From the NCBI GenBank assembly GCA_964349145.1, contig CAYGFN010000001.1, forward strand, positions 8,683 to 36,742: a stretch of 28,060 nucleotides of DNA, in the 5' to 3' direction. Shown one piece after another: positions 4,911 to 23,634 of this stretch (its first letter is position 1; every line of letters begins with the position of its first letter). The notes below the pieces were generated by a model that had not been told where the DNA came from, made no database searches, and worked only from the letters and a program-made list of their open reading frames with translations. Source of the DNA: an uncultured Candidatus Saccharibacteria bacterium. GTDB lineage: Bacteria > Patescibacteriota > Minisyncoccia > Phycocordibacterales > UBA2100. The position numbers and the translations under genes were made by a program.

Positions 4911-4962
4911 TTACGGCATTAATCTACCACGAAGCCTGAATCTTGCAGCGAGCGGAGTGAGT

Positions 4963-5053
4963 GCGAGTATGTGGCGCGGAATCTCCCGCGGGCGAAGAGC
5001 CGAGGATTAAGGCTTTTCAGTGGGAAAAGCCGGGTTCCGCGCCGCATACTCGC
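4963..5053 (+). repeat. Structured repeat, family B copy 1
   Basis: 21-bp stem (4963-4983/5033-5053, two G-T pairs) enclosing a 49-nt core that is 47/49 identical to 12321-12369. Confidence 0.9.
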
Positions 5054-5066
5054 CGAACGAAGCCCC

Positions 5067-5441
5067 TTACCAGAAGATAAAGAATCGCTGCACCTTCTCG
5101 AGGAATGTGGGTGGCACTTCAACAGGCTCGGGGGTGGGTGGTTCCACGATGACAATAAGCCCCTCACCCTGCTTCCCGACGTCGTATTGTTCCCGAAGCG
5201 CCTCTTCCTGCCCGCGATCTGTTTTGAGCTTCTCGGTGTCACGACGAAGACGTTCGGCCTGCTCCTCAAGCTCGGATTGCTCGACTTCTGCATACTCACG
5301 AAGCGTCCGCGAGTCACGCTCCTTGCCGTAGACCTGCCACACGCCGATAGCCGCTCCGAGGACAACGAGCACTAGGACGAACGTCGCCGTACGCCTCAAA
5401 AAAAGGCGTACCGGATCATGCGTATTCCGGAAATTTGCCAT
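5067..5441 (-). CDS. Septum formation initiator family protein (FtsB/DivIC-like)
   Basis: N-terminal TM, coiled coil, then EEALREQYDVGKQGEGLIVIVE; TAGGAT 6 nt before the ATG. Confidence 0.75.
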   Translation of the reverse strand: MANFRNTHDPVRLFLRRTATFVLVLVVLGAAIGVWQVYGKERDSRTLREYAEVEQSELEEQAERLRRDTEKLKTDRGQEEALREQYDVGKQGEGLIVIVEPPTPEPVEVPPTFLEKVQRFFIFW

Positions 5442-5469
5442 TTCCGTATCCTATCATTACAATGCACCT

Positions 5470-5598
5470 ATGAGTTTTTTGTTTCATAAACGCACCAAGA
5501 AAGTCATCAACTTCTTTGCGGGTGGCATCGCCATCATCCTCATTTTGAGCATGGTGATTTTCTTCGCCCCGGGGATTCTGGAGCTTCTCTTGGCGTAG
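5470..5598 (+). CDS. 42-aa single-TM small protein, missing from the ORF track
   Basis: MSFLFHKRTKKVINFFAGGIAIILILSMVIFFAPGILELLLA*; TACAAT 6 nt before the ATG; fills the gap between the ftsB-like gene and lepA. Confidence 0.7.
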   Translation: MSFLFHKRTKKVINFFAGGIAIILILSMVIFFAPGILELLLA

Positions 5599-5607
5599 TA
5601 GCCACTC

Positions 5608-7392
5608 CTAAGTTTCTCGGATTACTTTGAGAAAGACGTCATTTGGGATGTCGACTTTTCCACGCGCGAGCATCTTTTTCTTGCCGCGCTTCTGCTTGTC
5701 GAGCAATTTATTCTTGCGCGATACGTCTCCGCCATAGAGATAGCCTGTCACGTCCTTGCGCATGGCGGATTTTCTTCGCGACGCAATAATCTTGCCATCC
5801 GCTTTTGCTTGAATCTTGAGCTCAAAAAGCTGTCTCGGAAGTAGCTTCTCGAGCTTCTCCACCATCGCTTCCGCCTCGTGCGCGACTCGTCGCTTGGATA
5901 CAATGCGCGCAAATGCAGGTACCGGATCTTCTGCGACAAGCACGTCGAGCCGCATCACATCGGCGTCCTTCATACCGGTGAGCGTGTACGAGAGTGATGC
6001 AAAGCCGCTCGAAATACTCTTGAGTTTGTCAAAAAAGCCGCGCATGAGTTCACGCAGAGGCATTTCCGCGTGCACCGCGGTCTTGCCATCAGGTAATGAT
6101 TCACTCTCTCCCACCACTGCTTCATGGTCGTACAGTATCTGTGCGATACCTCCCAAATATGCAGGCGGCGACATCACTACCACATCGGCCCAGAGCTCTT
6201 CGATTCGTTTTGCTTGCCCCGAATCGGGAAATCGTGCAGGCGCGTAGACATCCTCAATCTCCCCGCTTGGGTGAGTGATTCGATAGACTGTCGTCGGCAT
6301 GGTCACAACAAGCTCGAGATTAAATTCGCGCTTGAGCCGCTCGATGACGATTTCCAAATGGAGCATACCGAGGAATCCGCATCGAAATCCCTTGCCCATA
6401 ATTCCCGATGATTCTTCTTCGTACGAAAGTGATGAGTCCGAAAGGCGCAGTCGATCGAGCGATTGCCGCAATAGCGGGAGATCGTCCTGAGATTCCGGGT
6501 ACACGCTTGCCCAGATGACCGGAGTGGGTTGCTGGTATCCCGGCAATTCCGGTGCCGCGTTGCGCACCGAGACGACCGTATCGCCTACCGAGGCAATGCC
6601 CGGGCGCTTTACGCCCGTCACGATGTAGCCAATTTCTCCCTGCGCAAGTTCTTCGGCGGGTGTCTCATCCGGCATCATGCGCCCCACCTCGACTGCAATG
6701 AAATCCGCATTCGCGGCCGCAAAACGGAGCGCATCCCCTTTTTTAATCGAGCCACCAAAGACGCGCGTATACACAATGACTCCTCGATGGTCCGAATACC
6801 CGAAATCGAAAATGAGCGCCTGCGTTGCGGCTCCCGACGACGTCGGGGGTGGTACGCGCCGGACCACTTCATCGAGCAGATGCTCGACACCCTGTCCCGT
6901 TTTCCCTGATACCGGCAATACATCGGCCTCATCGCATCCGAGAAGGAGGGCGAGCTCGCTCGTGATGTCTGCCACTCGAGAAGCGGGAACGTCAATTTTG
7001 GACACCGCTGGCACGATGACGAGCCCCAATTCTTTCGCGACCGAGAGGACCGAGAGTGTCTGTGCTTCGATACCCTGAGTCGAGTCTACGAGCAAGACGA
7101 CGCCCTCGACCGCCTTGAGGGCGCGCGAGACTTCGTACGAGAAATCTACGTGCCCCGGCGTATCGATGAGATTAATGATGTAATCCGCTCCTCCCACCTT
7201 CCAGCTCATGCGCACGGGCTGCATTTTGATGGTGATACCTCGCTCGCGCTCGAGATCCATGCGATCAAGGACCTGCTCCTGCATGTTTCGCTTCTCAATG
7301 GTGTGAGTCAGCTCGAGCATGCGGTCGGCAAGAGTACTTTTACCATGGTCGATATGAGCAATAATGCTGAAATTTCTGATATTGGAAGACAT
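5608..7392 (-). CDS. lepA: Elongation factor 4 (LepA)
   Basis: MSSNIRNFSIIAHIDHGKSTLADR, ERERGITIK, LIDTPGHVDF, GFRCGFLGMLH, KLLDKQKRGKKKM. True start is 7392, not 7452. Confidence 0.97.
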   Translation of the reverse strand: MSSNIRNFSIIAHIDHGKSTLADRMLELTHTIEKRNMQEQVLDRMDLERERGITIKMQPVRMSWKVGGADYIINLIDTPGHVDFSYEVSRALKAVEGVVLLVDSTQGIEAQTLSVLSVAKELGLVIVPAVSKIDVPASRVADITSELALLLGCDEADVLPVSGKTGQGVEHLLDEVVRRVPPPTSSGAATQALIFDFGYSDHRGVIVYTRVFGGSIKKGDALRFAAANADFIAVEVGRMMPDETPAEELAQGEIGYIVTGVKRPGIASVGDTVVSVRNAAPELPGYQQPTPVIWASVYPESQDDLPLLRQSLDRLRLSDSSLSYEEESSGIMGKGFRCGFLGMLHLEIVIERLKREFNLELVVTMPTTVYRITHPSGEIEDVYAPARFPDSGQAKRIEELWADVVVMSPPAYLGGIAQILYDHEAVVGESESLPDGKTAVHAEMPLRELMRGFFDKLKSISSGFASLSYTLTGMKDADVMRLDVLVAEDPVPAFARIVSKRRVAHEAEAMVEKLEKLLPRQLFELKIQAKADGKIIASRRKSAMRKDVTGYLYGGDVSRKNKLLDKQKRGKKKMLARGKVDIPNDVFLKVIRET

Positions 7393-7393
7393 A

Positions 7394-7522
7394 TCATTTA
7401 CCCGCCTGCCCCGTTGGAAGCGTAGCTTTCCAACCGGGGTGATCAACCCCATTAGAGACGCGAAGCGCTCTAATGGGGCACGTGTGAGCGATTATGGAAA
7501 AGTTTCTGATGTTCTGAGACAT
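7394..7522 (-). pseudogene. 42-codon upstream ORF: duplicated lepA N-terminus with two in-frame 36-nt palindromic inserts
   Basis: MSQNIRNFSIIAH[TCPIRALRVSNG]VDH[PGWKATLPTGQA]GK*; TATAGT 8 nt before the ATG; the TGA ends 1 nt before the lepA ATG. Confidence 0.85.
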
Positions 7523-7532
7523 GGAGAGACAC

Positions 7533-7600
7533 TATACCCCGTGAGATAAAAGAACTCTAATTACCTGAACTGCGCGGGACGATGTATCTCATGGGGTATA
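7533..7600 (+). repeat. Inverted-repeat element, family A copy 2 (36-nt interior)
   Basis: TATACCCCGTGAGATA (7533-7548) ... TATCTCATGGGGTATA (7585-7600). Confidence 0.9.
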
Positions 7601-7613
7601 CCCCACTCATCGC

Positions 7614-9323
7614 CTACGCGCTCGTCGTCGTGCCGGGACCTTCTGCAGACGTCACAATCGTGACTTCTGGCAATGTCTTTGCACTCCAGATGCGCGCATG
7701 GAGAGACGCATACGTCTCGTTGAATTCACGACTTCCCAGTAAACGATAGGTGAATCCTGCGACCAATATGCCGCATACCCCGGCTGCAAATCCCTGCACA
7801 AAAATCGAAAGTGCGGTCGATGAGACGACAAACGAGCTTGCAAGTCCCAAAAAGATGTACGCGGCGAGGCCTGCGGCGCATGCTGCAAGCACACTGTCGA
7901 GCAGCGCCGACGCTATCTGGCGAAGCAAGCCCCTGAAGTGCCATTCGAAATGCAGGACAAGCACCACCGCACCCACGATAATTGCAATCGCATACGCACA
8001 CGCGAGGATAAGCACGTTGCTTCCCGAAATATCATCCACGCGCAAGAGCCGCTCTACGAAGCCAAGTATTCGCTGGTCAGTCGTTACGAACAACCCTACC
8101 GCTGCTACCCCGAGCGTGGTGAGAGCCACTCCTGCTGAAACCACGAGGGGTACAAGTGTTTTGCCCGCCGCATAGTATCCTCGCATCAGAAGGAGCGTAA
8201 GACCTTGTGCGGCGAGCGCGCTTGCAATCAGTGCAAACGCCGCAGCGGTAAGGCGAGTGTCGTTCCAACTGAATGCACCCGTCCCGAGAATCACGCGGAC
8301 AATGTGCGCACGGAGGACGAGGATGAGTGCGCTCGCCGGAATAGACCAGAAAAATACATAGCGCGCGGCGATAGCGACATGACGGACGAATTCCTCTGTC
8401 TCTCCTCGAGAGAGCGCACGCGCAAGCGTCGGGAATGCCGCGACCGAGTATGATGCCCCAATAACCGCAAGCGGCACTGCGGCAAGATTGAAGGCAAACA
8501 TAAAGACCGCAATCGATCCTGTGGCAAGCAATCCCGCGAATACCGTAAGTCCGAGGAAGGTCAATTGATTCATGGAGAGCGCAAGTGCTCGCGGTACCGA
8601 TATTGCTGCCGTCGTGAGGAGTGCGCGCGGGTCACGCAGCGTTGGCATTCGGCGAAAAAATCCATCGCCAATGAGAGACGGCACCTGAATCGCCGCATGG
8701 AGGGTGGCACCAATCACGACGCCCCATCCGAGACCCGCTATCCCCCACAGCGGATACAAAACAAGGACGCCGAAAATGATGCCCGCATTGTAGAGAAGCG
8801 GCGAGATAGCATAGAGCGCATAGCGCTCTCGTACCTGTGTCACGCCGGCGAGAATGTTTGAGAGGCCGAGAAGAATCGGCTGCAGGAGAAGAATACGAGT
8901 GATGAGAGTGAGATGTTCGCCTTGTCCCGCCGCGATGAGGACAGGAAAGAGCCTCTCAAGAATATGCGGAGCAAGAAGCGCAGCGCCCGCAGACACACAA
9001 ACGGCAAACGCGGAGAATCCTACGACAATCGTGTCAATGTAATCTTTTTGCTCGTCTCGATTTCTCCTGGTCAGTTCCGGAATAAGAATGTACACGGACA
9101 CGAGAGCACCCGTGGCCACGAAGATAAGGTCAGGTATGCGAAACCCCGCATAATAGACATCCAAGAGTGTTGATGCCCCAAACGCGTCAGCAAACATTCT
9201 GTCGCGAACGAGTGCGAGGAGCGACGAGAGGAGTGCCGCAACCGCCAAAATGGAGGCGGCAGCGTGCAAACCCCGTACCTCCGACGAAAGATAGCGAAGT
9301 GCGTTTCGAGCAAAGAGCGCCAT
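7614..9323 (-). CDS. murJ: Lipid II flippase MurJ/MviN
   Basis: SSLLALVRDRMFADAFGAS, DVYYAGFRIPDLIF, PLAVIGASYSVAAFPTLA, LMRGYYA; about 14 TM segments. Confidence 0.9.
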   Translation of the reverse strand: MALFARNALRYLSSEVRGLHAAASILAVAALLSSLLALVRDRMFADAFGASTLLDVYYAGFRIPDLIFVATGALVSVYILIPELTRRNRDEQKDYIDTIVVGFSAFAVCVSAGAALLAPHILERLFPVLIAAGQGEHLTLITRILLLQPILLGLSNILAGVTQVRERYALYAISPLLYNAGIIFGVLVLYPLWGIAGLGWGVVIGATLHAAIQVPSLIGDGFFRRMPTLRDPRALLTTAAISVPRALALSMNQLTFLGLTVFAGLLATGSIAVFMFAFNLAAVPLAVIGASYSVAAFPTLARALSRGETEEFVRHVAIAARYVFFWSIPASALILVLRAHIVRVILGTGAFSWNDTRLTAAAFALIASALAAQGLTLLLMRGYYAAGKTLVPLVVSAGVALTTLGVAAVGLFVTTDQRILGFVERLLRVDDISGSNVLILACAYAIAIIVGAVVLVLHFEWHFRGLLRQIASALLDSVLAACAAGLAAYIFLGLASSFVVSSTALSIFVQGFAAGVCGILVAGFTYRLLGSREFNETYASLHARIWSAKTLPEVTIVTSAEGPGTTTSA

Positions 9324-9324
9324 A

Positions 9325-11643
9325 CTAGCGCGTCGGCTTCGCGGGCTCTTCTCGCATCTGTCCGTTGAGTTGCGCTTCGGTAAGCTCGCGCCCTGCGGTT
9401 ATGTCCGCAATAAGTTGCGCAGCCACTTTCTGCGACGGATCAATCTCCTGTAATCGCTTAAAGGATTCGAGTGCGTCCGCTTTATTCCCTGCCCGATAGC
9501 GACTCAGCCCAAGTAAAAACTCCGCGTTTGCAAACTGCGGCTGAATGACAAGCGCTTGCTGCAGTGCAGCCACCGCTTCTGGATAACGCTTCGCTGCGTA
9601 TGAGATGACACCGAGGTTGTACCACGCCTGCGCATCTTCACGAGCATATTGCACAGCGCCCGTCGCTGCTTGGAATGCGTTCTCATAATCGGCTTTTCCC
9701 GCATATATCTGCGAAGCCAGATAGTAGGCCACTGCAAAATTCGCTTTGAGCTCTACCGCACGAGTGAGGAGTGCGAGCGCTCTGTCCGGATTCTTCTGCA
9801 AGATCTCGAGCTGAGCAAGATTCACATACGGTACCGGAAACGTCGGGTTCTCTGCAAGCGCTCGCTCGAAGGCGGCGCGCGCGCTGTCATATGCCCCCTC
9901 CACATTTGATCCCGCAAGCTGCGCGTAGAGAGACGCAAGGACCAGCCAATTTTGATAATTACCGCCATCGATTTCGACTGCCGCAAGGCCGTGCTTAATG
10001 GTCTCCTCAAGGGTGACCTTCAGCTTTGCTTTTGTGGCTTCGTCGTCAGGATTCTTCGACGCATTGAGCTCTTGGAGTGAGAGCAGTCCGAGCTGCACAG
10101 CTGAGGTGTGTGCGCGATCGCTTCCCGCGTGCACGCGAAGTGCAAACTTCATGTGGTTCGACGCAGATTCGATGTTTTTTGACTCGTTGTACACGAATAT
10201 TCCCTTGTTTACGATTGCTTCGGCTGTACCAATCCGCACGAGTGCACCCGAAGCGAATATCAGCGCAATACCTGAGAGAACTGCCGTCGAGAAAAATACG
10301 TGATGTACTGCCCCGCCCTTTGCCATGCTAAACGTACGCATCCGCACAAACGCAGGGACTGACAGCGCGACGAGGAGCCCCGCGAGAAAGAACATCAGTA
10401 TCACGATGGTGGTACCGGGAGATGAAACGGCGTACAGGGCGAAGAGATACAGGGTCGCGACAGAGAGCGGAAGCGCGATGGAGATTGCGGCAGTCTCGGT
10501 AGACGAAAACCAGAGCCTCACGACGAGCGCGGTCATCGCGAGCATAAATGCAATCCACGCAAAAAGCCCGAGTAGCCCGACGGTGATGAATGATGTGGCA
10601 ATCGGCGCGGCACCGACGCTGAAATCGACGTTCCAGAAATCTGTTTGATTCACATCAAGAGATTTATGAAGCCCCCATTCTCGATTGAACGTGTTGGGGC
10701 CGGCACCCACGAGGAGCGCGAGGGGGCGAGCAAGCGATTGCTGGCCAATCGCAAACGTGCCCGCAAACGAAGGTCGCACATCAGTCTGCACGACGCGGAT
10801 TTGGGCCGGTAGTACATTTACAACAAACGAGCCGAATACGAGTATGAAGAGTGTGACCAGTGCGCCCGAGAGGAGTGTGACGTTGCCGTCCCACCACCGC
10901 TCTCGTGCGGCAACCTTGGCTCGATACATGTGCACCGCACTCAATACAAGCAGTGCGCACATGATTGCGAAAAGTACGTCGAAGAAACTCGCAAGCAGGA
11001 GAAAGGCTCCGGCGAGTATTGCGCACGTCCACGCTACATACCGCCACCACGAAGCCGTGACCGCGGTGCCCAGCATCGCAAGACTAAGAAATCCCGCGAG
11101 GCCGGCAAACATCGAGAATTCATGCCAATTTCCAAGCAGGTTGCCTGTCTGACCAGCAAGGAGTCCACCGATTGACAGTGACGGGAATACAAAATGTACG
11201 ATTTCGACGACTAAGAGGACCAATCCTCCGACCAGTAGCGCCCGCATGGCGCTCACGACTTTGCCGGGGTGCATAGAAAACACGCTCGCTGAGAGCGCGA
11301 ACAGTGCAAACCCAACACAGACAAAAGCGAGCGTATCAATCTCGGCACCTGTCCCGACGAGCGACACGCCTTCGAATCCTGTCAGCGCCGAGGAGATGGC
11401 GTATGCAAGGGGCACGAGAATGGCAGCAAAAAGAGAACTTGCCCACGGAATTTTCACTCCCCCTTCAGTAAAGCGCGCGACAAGCCACAGTACGCCGGCC
11501 ACAAGCAGAATCGAGGCGACGATTAAGATCTTGGCTCGTCCGAGAACGATCCACGGAATCGGCATCGCGATGAATGGTATGAGCCCCATGAGTACGACGA
11601 GAATGAGGCGCACAAATCCATCCAAGCGTTCACTCGTATGCAT
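9325..11643 (-). CDS. Multi-TM protein (O-antigen ligase-like) with C-terminal TPR repeats
   Basis: About 12-13 TM segments, LLVGAGPNTF loop, TPR signatures (AWYNLGVISY, AEFLLGLSRY); TATTAT 7 nt before ATG 11643. Confidence 0.75.
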   Translation of the reverse strand: MHTSERLDGFVRLILVVLMGLIPFIAMPIPWIVLGRAKILIVASILLVAGVLWLVARFTEGGVKIPWASSLFAAILVPLAYAISSALTGFEGVSLVGTGAEIDTLAFVCVGFALFALSASVFSMHPGKVVSAMRALLVGGLVLLVVEIVHFVFPSLSIGGLLAGQTGNLLGNWHEFSMFAGLAGFLSLAMLGTAVTASWWRYVAWTCAILAGAFLLLASFFDVLFAIMCALLVLSAVHMYRAKVAARERWWDGNVTLLSGALVTLFILVFGSFVVNVLPAQIRVVQTDVRPSFAGTFAIGQQSLARPLALLVGAGPNTFNREWGLHKSLDVNQTDFWNVDFSVGAAPIATSFITVGLLGLFAWIAFMLAMTALVVRLWFSSTETAAISIALPLSVATLYLFALYAVSSPGTTIVILMFFLAGLLVALSVPAFVRMRTFSMAKGGAVHHVFFSTAVLSGIALIFASGALVRIGTAEAIVNKGIFVYNESKNIESASNHMKFALRVHAGSDRAHTSAVQLGLLSLQELNASKNPDDEATKAKLKVTLEETIKHGLAAVEIDGGNYQNWLVLASLYAQLAGSNVEGAYDSARAAFERALAENPTFPVPYVNLAQLEILQKNPDRALALLTRAVELKANFAVAYYLASQIYAGKADYENAFQAATGAVQYAREDAQAWYNLGVISYAAKRYPEAVAALQQALVIQPQFANAEFLLGLSRYRAGNKADALESFKRLQEIDPSQKVAAQLIADITAGRELTEAQLNGQMREEPAKPTR

Positions 11644-11726
11644 AGTGCCGATAATAGCACGGGCTCTCTCGCAAGAAGCAGGTGTGGATTTTGCGTGTAG
11701 GCCTTTACGAGACAGCCACAAATACG

Positions 11727-11732
11727 TATAAT
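11727..11732 (+). promoter_or_regulatory. -10 box of rnpB
   Basis: Perfect TATAAT 6-7 nt upstream of the predicted P1 helix. Confidence 0.7.
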
Positions 11733-11738
11733 GAAAGC

Positions 11739-12170
11739 CGCGTCAGACAGCCGCCCCGTGAGATAAGGCGTTCGAGATATTCTAGTTAAGTCGGGCATCA
11801 CTCACAGTCCCGCTTAGCATGGAAATCGGAATGTGTTATCTCATGGGGAGGAAAGTCCGGACACGCACCCGCCCTTTCTTAGAAAGAGCGGGTAGCAAGG
11901 TAGCGGGTAACACTCGTCGTGCGAGAGCATAGGGTTGCGAACAGAGACGCCAAGGCCGAGAGGCTGCGGGCTCCGCAAGGAGTAGCTCTGGTGGAAACAT
12001 CAGAGGTGCAACGGCAAAAAACCTACCTGCGTGCAAGACCGTGTTCGTCGGGAACCAATTGGACCTGACGAAAGAGTCGCTCGAGGTGTGTGGCAACACA
12101 CATCCCAGATACATGGCTGTCATAAGTGTCGCCGCAAGGCTCCCTTAACAGAATCCGGCTTATCGATGCG
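11739..12170 (+). ncRNA. rnpB: RNase P RNA with extended P3
   Basis: GAGGAAAGTCC (11848-) and ACAGAATCCGGCTTA P4 halves; P2 GACAGCC/GGCTGTC; P1 CGCGTC/GATGCG; GCAAG and CCCAGATACATG conserved segments. Confidence 0.93.
11754..11848 (+). repeat. Inverted-repeat element, family A copy 3 (71-nt interior), inside rnpB
   Basis: CCCCGTGAGATA (11754-11765) ... TATCTCATGGGG (11837-11848); lacks the outer TATA. Confidence 0.9.
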
Positions 12171-12177
12171 ACGAACG

Positions 12178-12203
12178 AGCGAAGCGTAAAAGCTTCGCTT
12201 TTT
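12178..12203 (+). terminator. Intrinsic terminator of rnpB
   Basis: AGCGAAGC-gtaaaa-GCTTCGCT followed by a T run. Confidence 0.7.
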
Positions 12204-12251
12204 CGTTTCCGAGTGAGGAGCATCGCTTTCGCGAAGCGAAAGTTGCGACGC

Positions 12252-12279
12252 GCAAAAGGACCCGAAAGGGTCCTTTTGC
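12252..12279. terminator. Bidirectional terminator hairpin between rnpB and nrdJ
   Basis: GCAAAAGGACCC-GAAA-GGGTCCTTTTGC, perfect 12-bp stem. Confidence 0.75.
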
Positions 12280-12300
12280 TTTCAGATACCAGAGCGAGTG

Positions 12301-12389
12301 TAATCCCGTATTTCAGAACCTCCCGCAGGCGAAGAGCCGAGGATTAAGGCTTTTCAGTGGGAAAGGCCGGGTTCTGAAATACGGGATTA
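12301..12389 (+). repeat. Structured repeat, family B copy 2
   Basis: Perfect 20-bp stem (12301-12320/12370-12389) around the 49-nt core shared with 4984-5032. Confidence 0.9.
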
Positions 12390-12402
12390 TCGAGCGAATC
12401 AC

Positions 12403-14760
12403 TTACACGATTTCGCAAGTGCCGCCGGCACAGGCCAATTCTTTCTTCTGCTCAGTCTCATCGGTGCGTTCGTAGATGACAAGCTTCGAGTAGTCAATTT
12501 TCGGGAATCGCGCAGCGAGTGCTTCGTACGTCTTCTTGTCGATGACTTCGTACGGCGCGAGGCGGTACACGTGATTCTCGCGCGGGAGGAATGAAAGACC
12601 GCCGATGATGTCCCAATTTGTGTACAGCCATGAGACGACCGCGACCCACTCTTCTTCGCCGACAGAAATAGTTGCCGAGGGGTTATGCTCCGTCCAATTG
12701 AGCTTCACCATCTTCCAGTACTCGAGCTGCTCGATGGCGGTCTGATCATTTTTGTACACCGACCCCTGCGGAGCTTTCACCGGGAATTCCAAGACATATG
12801 TGTTTGCCTCTCCCATGGTCTGTCCGACTTCCGGATAGAGTGGGATGCCCTGATCCTTGACCATCTTGAAGAGCGAGTCGGTCGCCGAAATACGGACGCG
12901 TCGGATGTAGTACTGCGCATGGCGCGGGTGCAGACCCGATGAGCAATCGAAGGTCTGCGAGACGGTGCCCGATGGCTTCACGCAGGTAATCGAGTTCGAC
13001 ATCGGGACGCCAAAGCGCTTGGCGTACGTCGCATTCGTCTTGATTGCCGCATCGCGCATCTTGCGCATGACCTTCGCGTCGCGCACGGTGGCGCAGTCCC
13101 ACTGGCCGGTAATCGAGACGCCGAGGAGACGCTCTTGCTCACAATTCTCGGTCCAGTCTTTAGAAATGTAATTGAATTTCGTGAGCGTGGACTGATACGT
13201 GCCGAGGAGCGTCGCGAGGCGCGTCTTCCGCATGAGCGACTTCTCGGTATCGTCCGCGCGGGCGATGACCTCCGAGAGATTGCAGAACTGCTTCGACTGC
13301 AAAATGATTTCGCCACATGGGTTGGTACCCACCTGACCGATGTAGCCCTTCATCTTGCCGCCGTGCTTTTTCTCGAGGAATTTGAATCGACGAGTCGGCA
13401 TAGTCTTTTCGAGAGCCCCGCGGTTGAAAATGCCGCGCTCTCCAGAGCCGGATTTCATAAGCGCCACCCACTCATCCATGAGCTCGGCGTTCGTCGGCTT
13501 GGTCTCGTAGACGGCTGAGTTGTTGGCCATTGCTCGGTGACCATCGGTGAGATAAAACTGGCCTTTTTTTGCATCTCGCAATTCGAGGTCATCCAGATCC
13601 GAGAGGCTGATCATCGCCGAGCGGCGTACGCCACCGGCGACCACGCACTCTCCGATTTTGCAGATAATGTCGTGCGCATCGATGGTGCGAAGGCGTCTCC
13701 CCTGGCGCTTCAGAATGCGCTCACGTGCAAAGACGAGCAGGCTTCTGAGCGGTTCGGGGCCTGAAGCTTTGCCGCCCATGGTCTGTAATCGCGCACCGGC
13801 GGGGCGAATGAGCGAGTAATCGAAATCGATATCCTTACCTGCGTACCATGTCTTCAGACCAAGTGTGAGCGCATCGCACCATCCCTCCTTGGAGTCAGCG
13901 ATAACGTGTGTCGACAATTTCTGCCCGATTTGTTTCTGAATTTGCGGGAGCTGCTCGATGTTTTGGCTCTCTACCGCAAAGCCGACACCGGTCCCCTGCA
14001 TGGAGAGGTACATGATTTCTGCAAAGTCTTCGAGCTTCACGGGCGCGGTGAATGAGCAGTTGTAGAAGCAGGTGTTGCACTTGCGAGCCGGTGCTCCGGC
14101 GAATTGCATCGCGCGCATCGACGGCATCACCTCTTGTTTCAAAATCGCTTCACGCACTTCCGTGTACTCTTTTTTCGTCAGCTTCTCACCGAGATTCTCT
14201 TTCATAAAGTCAACGTAGCGATCGACTGTCTCAATCCACGTCTCGCGGCGCTGCTCACTCTCTACCCACCTTGCATACGTGCGGAGGTAAATGAATTCGC
14301 CAAGCGGATTGTTCTTGAAATACTTCTTGCTCTCTTCGGAGAGTTTCTTGACGTGCTCGGGCACTTCTCCCTGCTCATCGCGGATTTTGGAGCGCTCCTC
14401 ACGATAGATGATGTAGTTCTTGGCGGTCGACACGTAGTCGGAGAGCATGAGCTGACGCTCCACCTCGTCTTGGCATCCCTCAACCGTCGGGAGAAAATTC
14501 TTGTAGGTCTTGGCGATGCGCATCATCTCGCCGGCAACCTTGTGCGCGACGACGACTGCCTCATCACGCGACCCCTCATTGGATGCAATCATCGCCTTTT
14601 CGATGACGCCTACGATCTTGTCGAATTCAAATGGAACAATCCGACCATCCCGCTTCTGGATATTGGAAAGATACTTCTTATAGATGCGGTTCGAAGATGC
14701 TTCTATCGGGGTTCCTAAAACGCCCGCTTTTTTGTCGCGAGAGGTGGTTGGTTGTGCCAT
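12403..14760 (-). CDS. nrdJ: Class II (adenosylcobalamin-dependent) ribonucleotide reductase with N-terminal ATP-cone
   Basis: ATP-cone IQKRDGRIVPFEFDKI; FIYLRTYAR, MPSMRAM, FYNCSF, GGVRRSAMISL, GTNPCGEI, TCVKPSGTVS; C-terminal CAGGTC; no beta subunit gene nearby. Confidence 0.9.
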   Translation of the reverse strand: MAQPTTSRDKKAGVLGTPIEASSNRIYKKYLSNIQKRDGRIVPFEFDKIVGVIEKAMIASNEGSRDEAVVVAHKVAGEMMRIAKTYKNFLPTVEGCQDEVERQLMLSDYVSTAKNYIIYREERSKIRDEQGEVPEHVKKLSEESKKYFKNNPLGEFIYLRTYARWVESEQRRETWIETVDRYVDFMKENLGEKLTKKEYTEVREAILKQEVMPSMRAMQFAGAPARKCNTCFYNCSFTAPVKLEDFAEIMYLSMQGTGVGFAVESQNIEQLPQIQKQIGQKLSTHVIADSKEGWCDALTLGLKTWYAGKDIDFDYSLIRPAGARLQTMGGKASGPEPLRSLLVFARERILKRQGRRLRTIDAHDIICKIGECVVAGGVRRSAMISLSDLDDLELRDAKKGQFYLTDGHRAMANNSAVYETKPTNAELMDEWVALMKSGSGERGIFNRGALEKTMPTRRFKFLEKKHGGKMKGYIGQVGTNPCGEIILQSKQFCNLSEVIARADDTEKSLMRKTRLATLLGTYQSTLTKFNYISKDWTENCEQERLLGVSITGQWDCATVRDAKVMRKMRDAAIKTNATYAKRFGVPMSNSITCVKPSGTVSQTFDCSSGLHPRHAQYYIRRVRISATDSLFKMVKDQGIPLYPEVGQTMGEANTYVLEFPVKAPQGSVYKNDQTAIEQLEYWKMVKLNWTEHNPSATISVGEEEWVAVVSWLYTNWDIIGGLSFLPRENHVYRLAPYEVIDKKTYEALAARFPKIDYSKLVIYERTDETEQKKELACAGGTCEIV

Positions 14761-14867
14761 GCGCAAGAACTAAAACTATTAATTTGGAGGTTCATTGTAC
14801 TCCTGTAAGCATCTCGGGAATCCGAGTTTTCGAAGTGGATAACTCCTCCTCCCCAATGATGGCTTAG

Positions 14868-17096: not shown

Positions 17097-17216
17097 AGCC
17101 GGGAAAAAATCGGTGCGCACGAGGCGCGGAAAAAGTGTGGCGCGAGCCGTACAAAAGTACGGTGAGTGCGGCGCTGAGGCTCCGCAACGAAATGCCCAGC
17201 GGATTTTTTCTCGGCT
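17097..17216 (-). repeat. Structured repeat, family C copy 2
   Basis: Reverse complement carries the same core with identical N9/N4/N9 spacing as 1445-1511, in a different outer stem (AGCCGGGAAAAAATC/GATTTTTTCTCGGCT). Confidence 0.8.
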
Positions 17217-23303: not shown

Positions 23304-23391
23304 TGGCGGAGGCGGAGAGATTCGAACTCTCGGTGCCTTGCGACACTCGTCCTTTCCAGGGACGTGCACTAGACCACTATGCGACGCCTCC
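23304..23391 (-). tRNA. tRNA-Ser(GGA), CCA encoded
   Basis: 88-nt class II cloverleaf GGAGGCG/CGCCTCC, anticodon loop CT-GGA-AA, long variable arm GTGTC-GCAA-GGCAC. Confidence 0.93.
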
Positions 23392-23634
23392 TCCTGAACC
23401 AAACTCTCGTTTGATTTGCTCTCTCTTATAACCTTTCTTATACTCGCGCTCAACACGAACTGATTCAAGCTCGGAACTCACTTCGATACTCTTGAGCAAA
23501 TCGAATGGTCGACGAGACTTCGTAGACGGCACGGCGCCGCGATTGTGCTCAGAGATTCGCCTTTCCAAATCATTTGTACGACCTACGTACAAATTGCCAT
23601 CCTTTTGACTCCGCAGTATGTAAACGAAAAACAT
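23377..23634 (-). CDS. Small stand-alone GIY-YIG nuclease
   Basis: FVYILRS...LYVGRTNDLERRISEHNRG...STKSRRPF; the last codons overlap the first 15 nt of tRNA-Ser. Confidence 0.9.
   Translation of the reverse strand: MFFVYILRSQKDGNLYVGRTNDLERRISEHNRGAVPSTKSRRPFDLLKSIEVSSELESVRVEREYKKGYKREQIKREFGSGGGVA

Follow-up and report, generated by a model that had tools for sequence, protein, structure and literature searches.

The window analysed here is a stretch of 28,060 nt from the genome of an uncultured Candidatus Saccharibacteria bacterium (assembly GCA_964349145.1, contig CAYGFN010000001.1), and positions are given in the numbering of that stretch. It contains two copies, 7.3 kb apart and each solitary, of the family B element, an uncatalogued, lineage-restricted structured repeat of Patescibacteria with a length of about 115 bases. 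The + strand of the window is the sense of the element. Copy 1 lies between a tRNA-Gly gene (-) and a conserved 124-aa open reading frame (ORF) (-), 417 nt downstream of a tRNA-Arg gene (+). Copy 2 faces the ribonucleotide reductase (RNR) gene and is located 107 nt downstream of the RNase P RNA gene (+). The genome comprises 831 kb with a G+C content of 55%, is 90.8% complete and fragmentary, and is bacterial, encoding LepA, MurJ, HisRS and a class II RNR. The parts of the two copies are as follows.

4948-5067, + strand: copy 1, whole element, covariance-model match (R1 127.7 bits, E 1e-37)
4957-4962, + strand: copy 1, 5' foot, GUGAGU variant (minimum-free-energy structure)
4963-4983, + strand: copy 1, 5' arm of helix P1 (inverted repeat, 21 pairs)
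4984-5032, + strand: copy 1, three-way-junction core, with P2 at 4985-5005, the joining strand at 5006-5010 and P3 at 5011-5031 (pattern match and consensus structure)
5033-5053, + strand: copy 1, 3' arm of P1 (inverted repeat)
5054-5058, + strand: copy 1, 3' foot, CGAAC; TTA at 5067-5069, where the minus-strand ORF 5067-5441 stops, follows 8 nt on
12285-12404, + strand: copy 2, whole element, covariance-model match (R1 131.8 bits, E 6e-39)
12294-12300, + strand: copy 2, 5' foot, GC-GA-G, bulged U, G (minimum-free-energy structure; family consensus AAGCGAG(Y)G)
12301-12320, + strand: copy 2, 5' arm of P1 (inverted repeat, 20/20 complementary)
12321-12369, + strand: copy 2, three-way-junction core, with P2 at 12322-12342, the joining strand at 12343-12347 and P3 at 12348-12368
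12370-12389, + strand: copy 2, 3' arm of P1 (inverted repeat)
12390-12395, + strand: copy 2, 3' foot, U-C-GA-GC; TTA at 12403-12405 is the stop of the RNR gene 12403-14766 (-)

The initial annotation of the window had reported two near-identical 49-nt cores, and an exact pattern match on the + strand returned both at the same positions and with the same two differences, 0 chance matches being expected. The hairpins described inside the core, GGC-GAAGA-GCC and GGCTTTTC-AGTGG-GAAARGCC, are both present and covary across the family. Copy 2 has a P2 composed of the hairpin GGC GAAGA GCC, a CC/GG base, a G.A pair and a bulged A, and its P3 is GGCUUUUC AGUGG GAAAGGCC. An inverted-repeat search paired the arms of copy 1 over 21 bp (19 Watson-Crick and 2 G.U pairs) and those of copy 2 over 20 bp, all of them Watson-Crick. 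The inner stem GAAYC/GGTTC is common to both window copies, as had been noted, and the remaining stem is paired in each and unrelated in sequence between the two. The flanks are similar as described, with gagcggagtg (copy 1) and gagcgagtg (copy 2) 5' of the arms and cgaacgaa and cgagcgaa, respectively, 3' of them. The stops of two minus-strand ORFs (5067-5441 for copy 1, 12403-14766 for copy 2) face the copies, and the distance from the end of the 3' arm to TTA, the TAA stop on the - strand, is exactly 13 nt in both; this spacing is true of the window copies and is no rule of the family.

Folded as + strand RNA, copy 1 reaches -62.3 kcal/mol (z -6.6) and copy 2 -55.1 kcal/mol (z -7.6), and none of the shuffled sequences folded as well (0/200). 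The foot of copy 1 (4957-4962 paired with 5054-5058) consists of two Watson-Crick pairs, a tandem G.A/A.G, one further pair and one bulged U. Its C-G pair has become U-A, which is a covarying state of the family (columns 11/283: CG 61, UA 11, AU 7).

The family was collected with two covariance models, the first made from 7 copies found by blastn and the second from 92 copies. Genomes are labelled G000 to G060 (61 genomes of the order, G000 being that of the window), contigs C and loci L. The 831-kb genome contains 12 copies by the first model and 15 by the second, and one further copy was located on contig C56 by a regular-expression scan. The family is present in 26 of 36 genomes of the same genus (1-8 copies each), in 4 of 24 other families of the order and, under stricter filters, in only 2 genomes of an even sample of 150 from the whole phylum; copy numbers per genome within the genus range from 0 to 15. 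A loose pattern run against genome contigs returned mainly chance matches together with seven true copies; true copies occur in GenBank metagenome-assembled genomes titled Candidatus Kaiserbacteria, Nomurabacteria, Paceibacterota and Saccharibacteria. A scan of the window against Rfam 15 at the gathering score returned four tRNAs only, with the element unmatched, and permissive scans of both copies (E up to 10) gave chance-level miRNA and YrlB hits of 11-17 bits. The element was likewise unmatched in collections of phage and plasmid records, viral contigs scanned with the core pattern gave no match, and literature searches on Patescibacteria found no description of such repeats. Membership in an Rfam or REP family, which the initial annotation had named as the outcome that would remove novelty, was not found; no Rfam family matches, and the differences from REP sequences are set out below.

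Seen from its base, the consensus element starts with a foot, AAGCGAG(Y)G ... C-CGAGCG, which is formed by two Watson-Crick pairs, a tandem sheared G.A/A.G, another pair and a base that bulges out. Covariation extends to the pairs of the foot, GCGAG/CGAGC in the family being GUGAG/CGAAC in copy 1. Above the foot follow the stem base GYGGC/GCCRC, a free segment of about 10 bp with 4-6 pair types at every pair, a U/A tract with UUUU paired with AAAA, and an inner stem of 4-6 bp whose sequence is typical of the subfamily. The outer stem had been described as differing completely; this is the case for the two window copies, but at the family level only about 10 bp are sequence-free, and the base GYGGC, the UUUU/AAAA tract and the inner stem are semi-conserved. 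In the junction, the P2 strands CGCAG ... CGAG are nearly invariant and are interpreted as a G.A pair and a bulged A enclosed by C-G pairs, the P2 loop being variable. The strand joining P2 and P3 is purine-rich (GAGGAUURAG or GAGAGUGAG), and the P3 loop C-AGCA-G is nearly invariant. The strict foot is missing from about half of the copies, in which a longer plain stem takes its place, the helix measuring about 28-29 positions per arm with or without a foot. At least two core subtypes exist, with a U-rich and a G+C-rich P3, and both occur in the window's genome. Among the 92 copies, the P3 loop CAGUGGG is found in the two window copies only, and gene conversion over a short tract of the 49-nt core may account for this shared feature.

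In the alignment of the 92 copies, which was fitted to the covariance model and for that reason favours structure, 94.1% of pair cells form standard pairs, compared with 59.8% after shuffling and 43-54% with slid partners. Changes on both sides were observed for 37 of the 38 pairs, and the covariation score is 0.854 versus 0.202. A gapless inverted-repeat analysis of the arms shows pairing independently of the model. The stem covariation is near-total across the family and further copies also have paired flanks, in agreement with the structured single-strand element (RNA or DNA) that had been proposed from the two window copies.

Helix P1 contains 116 G.U pairs versus 30 A.C (p = 4e-13), and the copies antisense to both neighbours contain 16 versus 6. 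In 77 of the 92 copies the + strand gives the more stable fold, and its mean advantage is 5.5 kcal/mol. The foot GCGAG/CGAGC forms its tandem G.A on the + strand only, since the complement would give C.U. Together, the G.U excess, the fold stability and the G.A foot indicate that selection sees one strand, and the + strand of the window is the strand under selection, which is compatible with RNA and with folded single-stranded DNA. The core is under strong purifying selection.

Cores are identical up to 100% between species (for example G001 and G012), and the near-identity of the window cores therefore says nothing on their recency. Homogenisation of cores within genomes is weak, with a mean core identity of 0.70 within versus 0.65 between genomes. 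Every distinct copy among the 92 has a stem of its own. The exceptions are two pairs of identical rows, L023/L100 and L026/L092, each of which appears to be the same genome in two collections. Only pairing is constrained in the stem, which is why different copies have unrelated stems. Two metagenomic strains differ at 47 of 600 positions in the RNR gene (8%) and at 1 of 151 in the element, where the substitution produces a G.U pair; on a short timescale the stem is thus steadier than the adjacent coding DNA. Two paralogs of G012 (L066 and L229) do not differ in the core, and their free segments are set apart by four compensated pair changes. Between the orthologs C82 of the window's genome and L020 of G005, from species whose coding DNA is heavily diverged, the inner stem is kept, the free segments are wholly different, and P2 is kept through a compensated change from GAC/GTC to GCC/GGC.

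The G.U excess points to stepwise compensatory evolution, as one-step templated conversion would not leave such an excess. Stems drift by compensated substitutions via G.U intermediates, and rewriting of the stem, for example by template switching as the initial annotation had suggested, is not supported by the strain comparison. The other suggestion made there, a stem selected on structure alone, fits both the G.U excess and the compensated changes next to identical cores.

Orthologous sites differ in the presence and the type of the element. At the tRNA-Gly/lepA site, a type I copy is present in the window's genome and G012 and a type II copy in G003 and G001; an element is also found in G010 and G016, and G005 has only the two feet around a 10-bp palindrome. 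The 3' end of the RNR gene carries an element in the window's genome, G001 and G025 and none in G005 and G011, whose empty sites show no target duplication and no GAGCG target. Among the metagenomic relatives, 6 of 80 have the element at this position, in every case convergent with the gene and abutting its stop codon. The 66 distinct regions downstream of RNR include 5 with family B, at least 3 with other long-stem structured repeats and 15 with canonical terminators. In G003, a complete type I copy lies on the 5' half of a type II copy, with the 3' boundary in common; type II is intact at the same site in G002. Truncated remnants adjoin full copies. Copies turn over slowly, and the unit has sharp ends.

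Other long-stem repeat families with conserved interiors were observed after the RNR stop (L302, L303, L305, L309, L317, L322, L335, L330), one type of about 150 nt with a 15-bp stem and another resembling the window repeat 17097-17216. In metagenome contigs, L310 aligns well with L319/L321 through the RNR gene and the element, and homology fades about 30-100 nt past the 5' end, which places the element at or near a synteny break.

The 3' end of the element is usually a few bases from the stop (23 convergent) or the start (13 co-directional) of the neighbouring gene, and the spacing on the 5' side is variable. Canonical terminators adjoin the element at 2 of 41 loci. A tRNA gene is present at 4 of 46 loci, two of them one orthologous site, and there is no enrichment near tRNA genes. 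The information content upstream of the copies is about zero until AGCGAG; no conserved sequence and therefore no promoter common to the copies was found, and any RNA form must come from transcripts crossing the gene boundary. At L207 (G034:C5, 2849-2968, + strand), a copy of family B stands in antisense orientation between khpA (KH domain) and trmD, in a conserved ribosome-biogenesis operon, so that elements sit within operons too. Within the genus, the foldable strand is the C-rich (lagging) strand in 24 of 27 cases, 11 of 12 in the window's genome and 13 of 15 in three near-complete relatives. In G055, from another family of the order, the bias is seen in 2 of 5 regions, and one of the other three regions has two copies. 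It is plausible that this strand bias reflects survivorship, the more stable hairpin being tolerated on the leading-strand template. The window's genome has a gene for RNase III. No hit for the Rho RNA-binding domain (PF07497) exceeded the cut-off in any of the order's 61 genomes, the majority of which are over 90% complete, and control genomes were positive; the order seems to lack Rho.

The reading tentatively favoured here, as a possibility that falls somewhat short of probable, is that family B is a long-lived cis-acting structured RNA module at gene or transcript boundaries of Kaiserbacteria-type Patescibacteria, kept by selection for a putative function. The RNA would most likely be read from the + strand of the window. 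The module would act in cis on transcripts that cross the boundary, either as a barrier to read-through and antisense transcription or as a processing or 3'-end signal, and the conserved junction may be a knob for a protein. New copies would arise rarely, by duplication or by replacement at the same kinds of site. The presence of at least 15 copies under purifying selection in a 0.8-Mb genome argues that the copies do something.

Several observations weigh against this boundary module. Copy 2 is preceded by two terminator-like hairpins on its own strand, and many copies are antisense to both neighbours, among them the one inside the khpA-trmD operon. A barrier role leaves the strong conservation of the junction sequence unexplained, the C-rich-strand bias hints at an added constraint at the DNA level, and the pair counts come from the model-fitted alignment described above. 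The element fills the slot where some relatives carry terminators. Unlike an intrinsic terminator, it has no U-tract after the helix once stop codons are discounted, and a consensus terminator scan does not call the elements. By eye, the T-rich bases after the 3' foot include the stop codon of the gene in copies that face a convergent gene, and are absent before co-directional genes.

The division into a conserved part, made up of U/A tract, inner stem and junction, and a free paired part of about 10 bp is exactly that of a mature RNA and its processing stem, and family B could accordingly be a small trans-acting RNA gene, the outer stem being cut by RNase III to release a tRNA-sized RNA of about 70 nt, consisting of inner stem and junction, that serves as a part of a ribonucleoprotein, a decoy or a ribozyme. 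The presence of RNase III in the genome, a helix length held at about 28 positions per arm with or without a foot, core conservation of up to 100% across species and several copies per genome, as for tRNA genes, agree with such a gene. It is considered quite unlikely, given that the copies have no promoter in common, are not enriched near tRNA genes and, with E values of up to 10 allowed, match neither a ribozyme nor any other RNA family of Rfam; 0 to 15 copies within one genus would also be surprising if the RNA were essential. A non-autonomous mobile DNA repeat of the REP/REPIN or MITE (miniature inverted-repeat transposable element) kind, folding as single-stranded DNA and moved or copied in trans by an enzyme such as a Y1 (HUH, IS200-like) transposase that recognises the conserved foot and junction, without gain to the host, is on the unlikely side, though less so. 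Sharp boundaries without a promoter, presence/absence differences at orthologous sites, different core subtypes at the same site in different species, the type I copy of G003 that overlies remnants of a type II copy found intact in G002, truncated remnants beside full copies and an orientation biased relative to GC skew would all be in keeping with mobility. An own stem for each distinct copy is not the outcome of copy-and-paste, however, the copies persist and evolve in place with compensated changes, and the better-folding strand is the leading-strand template and not the strand exposed at the fork.

The enzymes that might mobilise such a repeat were searched for in the genomes. The window's genome encodes two Y1_Tnp (IS200-like) proteins (G000 C5:15595-16290 (-) and C12:2928-3614 (-)), relatives encode up to 14, and an element lies no more than 1.5 kb from 3 of 31 Y1 loci, against an expectation of about 0.3. 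The number of Y1 genes per genome is no guide to the number of elements, however (0 versus 7 in G012, 0 versus 6 in G055, 9 versus 0 in G030), no foot hairpins flank Y1 genes, and the one adjacency that was looked at closely, in G034, is accounted for by the khpA-trmD operon, inside which the element is antisense; a link to RAYT genes is thus unsupported by co-occurrence, proximity or flanking hairpins. A search of the window's genome found no autonomous version, in which an ORF would stand between the arms, and this, together with sequence-free arms and empty sites without target-site duplication, speaks against a MITE. No reverse transcriptase (RVT_1) was found in the genome either, and a retron or another element linked to reverse transcriptase was rejected. 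Dispersal as a repeat is compatible with function as an RNA, and the readings overlap in part. The last alternative, a stem that is actively rewritten by template switching or captured like a spacer, so that the paired 20-mer directs the element or a partner to a target, is highly improbable. The perfectly paired stems and the CAGUGGG loop, which among 92 copies is found only in the two window copies with their unrelated stems, would suit it. Against it stand the stability of stems between strains, the G.U excess as a mark of stepwise compensatory change, the small extent of the free sequence (about 10 bp), arm matches in the genome that do not exceed chance (the longest a single 15-mer) and the lack of hits of the core pattern in viral contigs; cores identical across species also mean that similar cores are no sign of recent copying.

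A further proposal, which is judged unlikely, is that the inner stem and junction, about 70 nt, represent a new class of tRNA-sized functional RNA of Paceibacteria-type members of the candidate phyla radiation (CPR), which would either be excised from a processing stem of free sequence or be read in place by a dedicated protein, as a boundary signal replacing part of the job of Rho. If true, this RNA class would be a new RNA-protein system and not a passive repeat. Should the boundary module mark transcript boundaries without Rho, it would bear on the control of read-through and antisense transcription in minimal genomes. The CPR/Patescibacteria hold a large share of bacterial diversity, and their non-coding RNAs and repeats are almost unstudied. 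The 92 copies, with 37 of 38 pairs changed on both sides and a conserved junction, provide a clean covariation set that is sufficient for an Rfam entry and for structure modelling. In annotation, knowledge of the family avoids spurious ORFs across the hairpins and explains synteny breaks and replaced terminators.

Among known repeats, the element may be set beside the REP, BIME and REPIN-RAYT sequences of Enterobacteria and Pseudomonas, which are likewise dispersed extragenic palindromes at gene ends, with Y1 genes in the genome and with variable number and position. REP sequences measure 20-40 nt and have a stem conserved within the genome, whereas the element of about 115 nt has a conserved three-way-junction tip and a stem unique to each copy, a layout that is opposite to that of REPs in placing a conserved tip on a free stem. 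The REP foot motif is GTAG, which the element lacks; it has a conserved but different foot, AAGCGAGYG ... CCGAGCG, whose strict form is missing from about half of the copies, these having longer stems. RAYT genes are flanked by REPs, and here the Y1 genes neither flank the elements nor co-vary with them. ERIC/IRU, Correia (NEMIS) and BOX are alike in being imperfect intergenic palindromes of 100-150 nt without an ORF, conserved across species and with compensated changes, and they act as RNA hairpins co-transcribed with neighbouring genes. They have conserved terminal inverted repeats, and Correia has target-site duplications, whereas the arms of the element are sequence-free, empty sites show no target duplication and no similarity in sequence or in Rfam was found.

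Integron attC sites resemble the element in that structure is kept and sequence is free, in their position just after the stop of an ORF, in having one functional folded strand and in a possible branched variable tip. Their outer boxes are conserved and the tip is variable; the element is the reverse, with a conserved tip. It has no R''/R' boxes (RYYYAAC / GTTRRRY), its boundaries being AAGCGAG ... CGAGCG, and an attC site was rejected on this basis, an integron integrase not having been searched for. The copies form no cassette arrays; they are separated by kilobases and have housekeeping genes around them (in the window lepA, murJ and RNase P RNA). RNase III processing stems of rRNA also combine a long, strictly paired helix of free sequence with an enclosed conserved RNA; here the enclosed RNA has only about 50-70 nt, and cleavage is putative.

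TIGR-Tas systems are tandem arrays beside a Nop-domain (Tas) gene, with two non-complementary spacers of 8-12 nt (PMC12045711). Like the element, they occur in CPR bacteria and combine palindromic stems that vary with conserved motifs and with pairs of the G.A type, resembling box C/D (PMC12045711). Compared by description (PMC12045711), the elements are no TIGR array, as they are solitary, have complementary arms and lack box C/D motifs; a Nop-domain gene was not searched for. A K-turn with L7Ae as partner was rejected, since no L7Ae was found and the geometry of the P2 loop is unfit for a K-turn. In the Ssn GIY-YIG nucleases with hairpin repeats, the stem sequence is recognised and the loop is free, the opposite of family B.

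Short forms were also observed, in which the foot GCGAG/CGAGC surrounds a bare hairpin of 9-11 bp without the junction. They are located as follows.

G000 C13, about 18731, - strand: short form
L065 (G005): short form at the tRNA-Gly site
L038: short form upstream of an element
L207, about 323, - strand: short form

An origin as simple deletion products was ruled out for three of these four cases, in which the polarity of the A/T tract is opposite to that of the long form. At G000 C48, about 3021 (+), the same foot GCGAG ... GAGC is combined with a 12-bp stem and an unrelated interior of about 100 nt, which suggests that the foot is a module common to several repeat families.

The Y1_Tnp proteins of the genus (L185-L213 in the relatives) have about 230 aa. 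Each genome, of about 0.8 Mb, carries between 0 and 14 paralogs that have diverged to 30-55% identity, an unusual expansion. The RNase P RNA of the window (class A, 11735-12178, + strand) scored 95.3 bits, just below the Rfam gathering score of 100, and was for that reason missed by the default scan; with respect to the TPR and RNR genes beside it, it has the opposite orientation to that in G005, G003 and G012. An ORF of 85 aa with a single GIY-YIG domain (MFFVYILRSQKDGNLYVGRTNDLERR...) is located at 23377-23634 (-), adjoining a tRNA-Ser gene.

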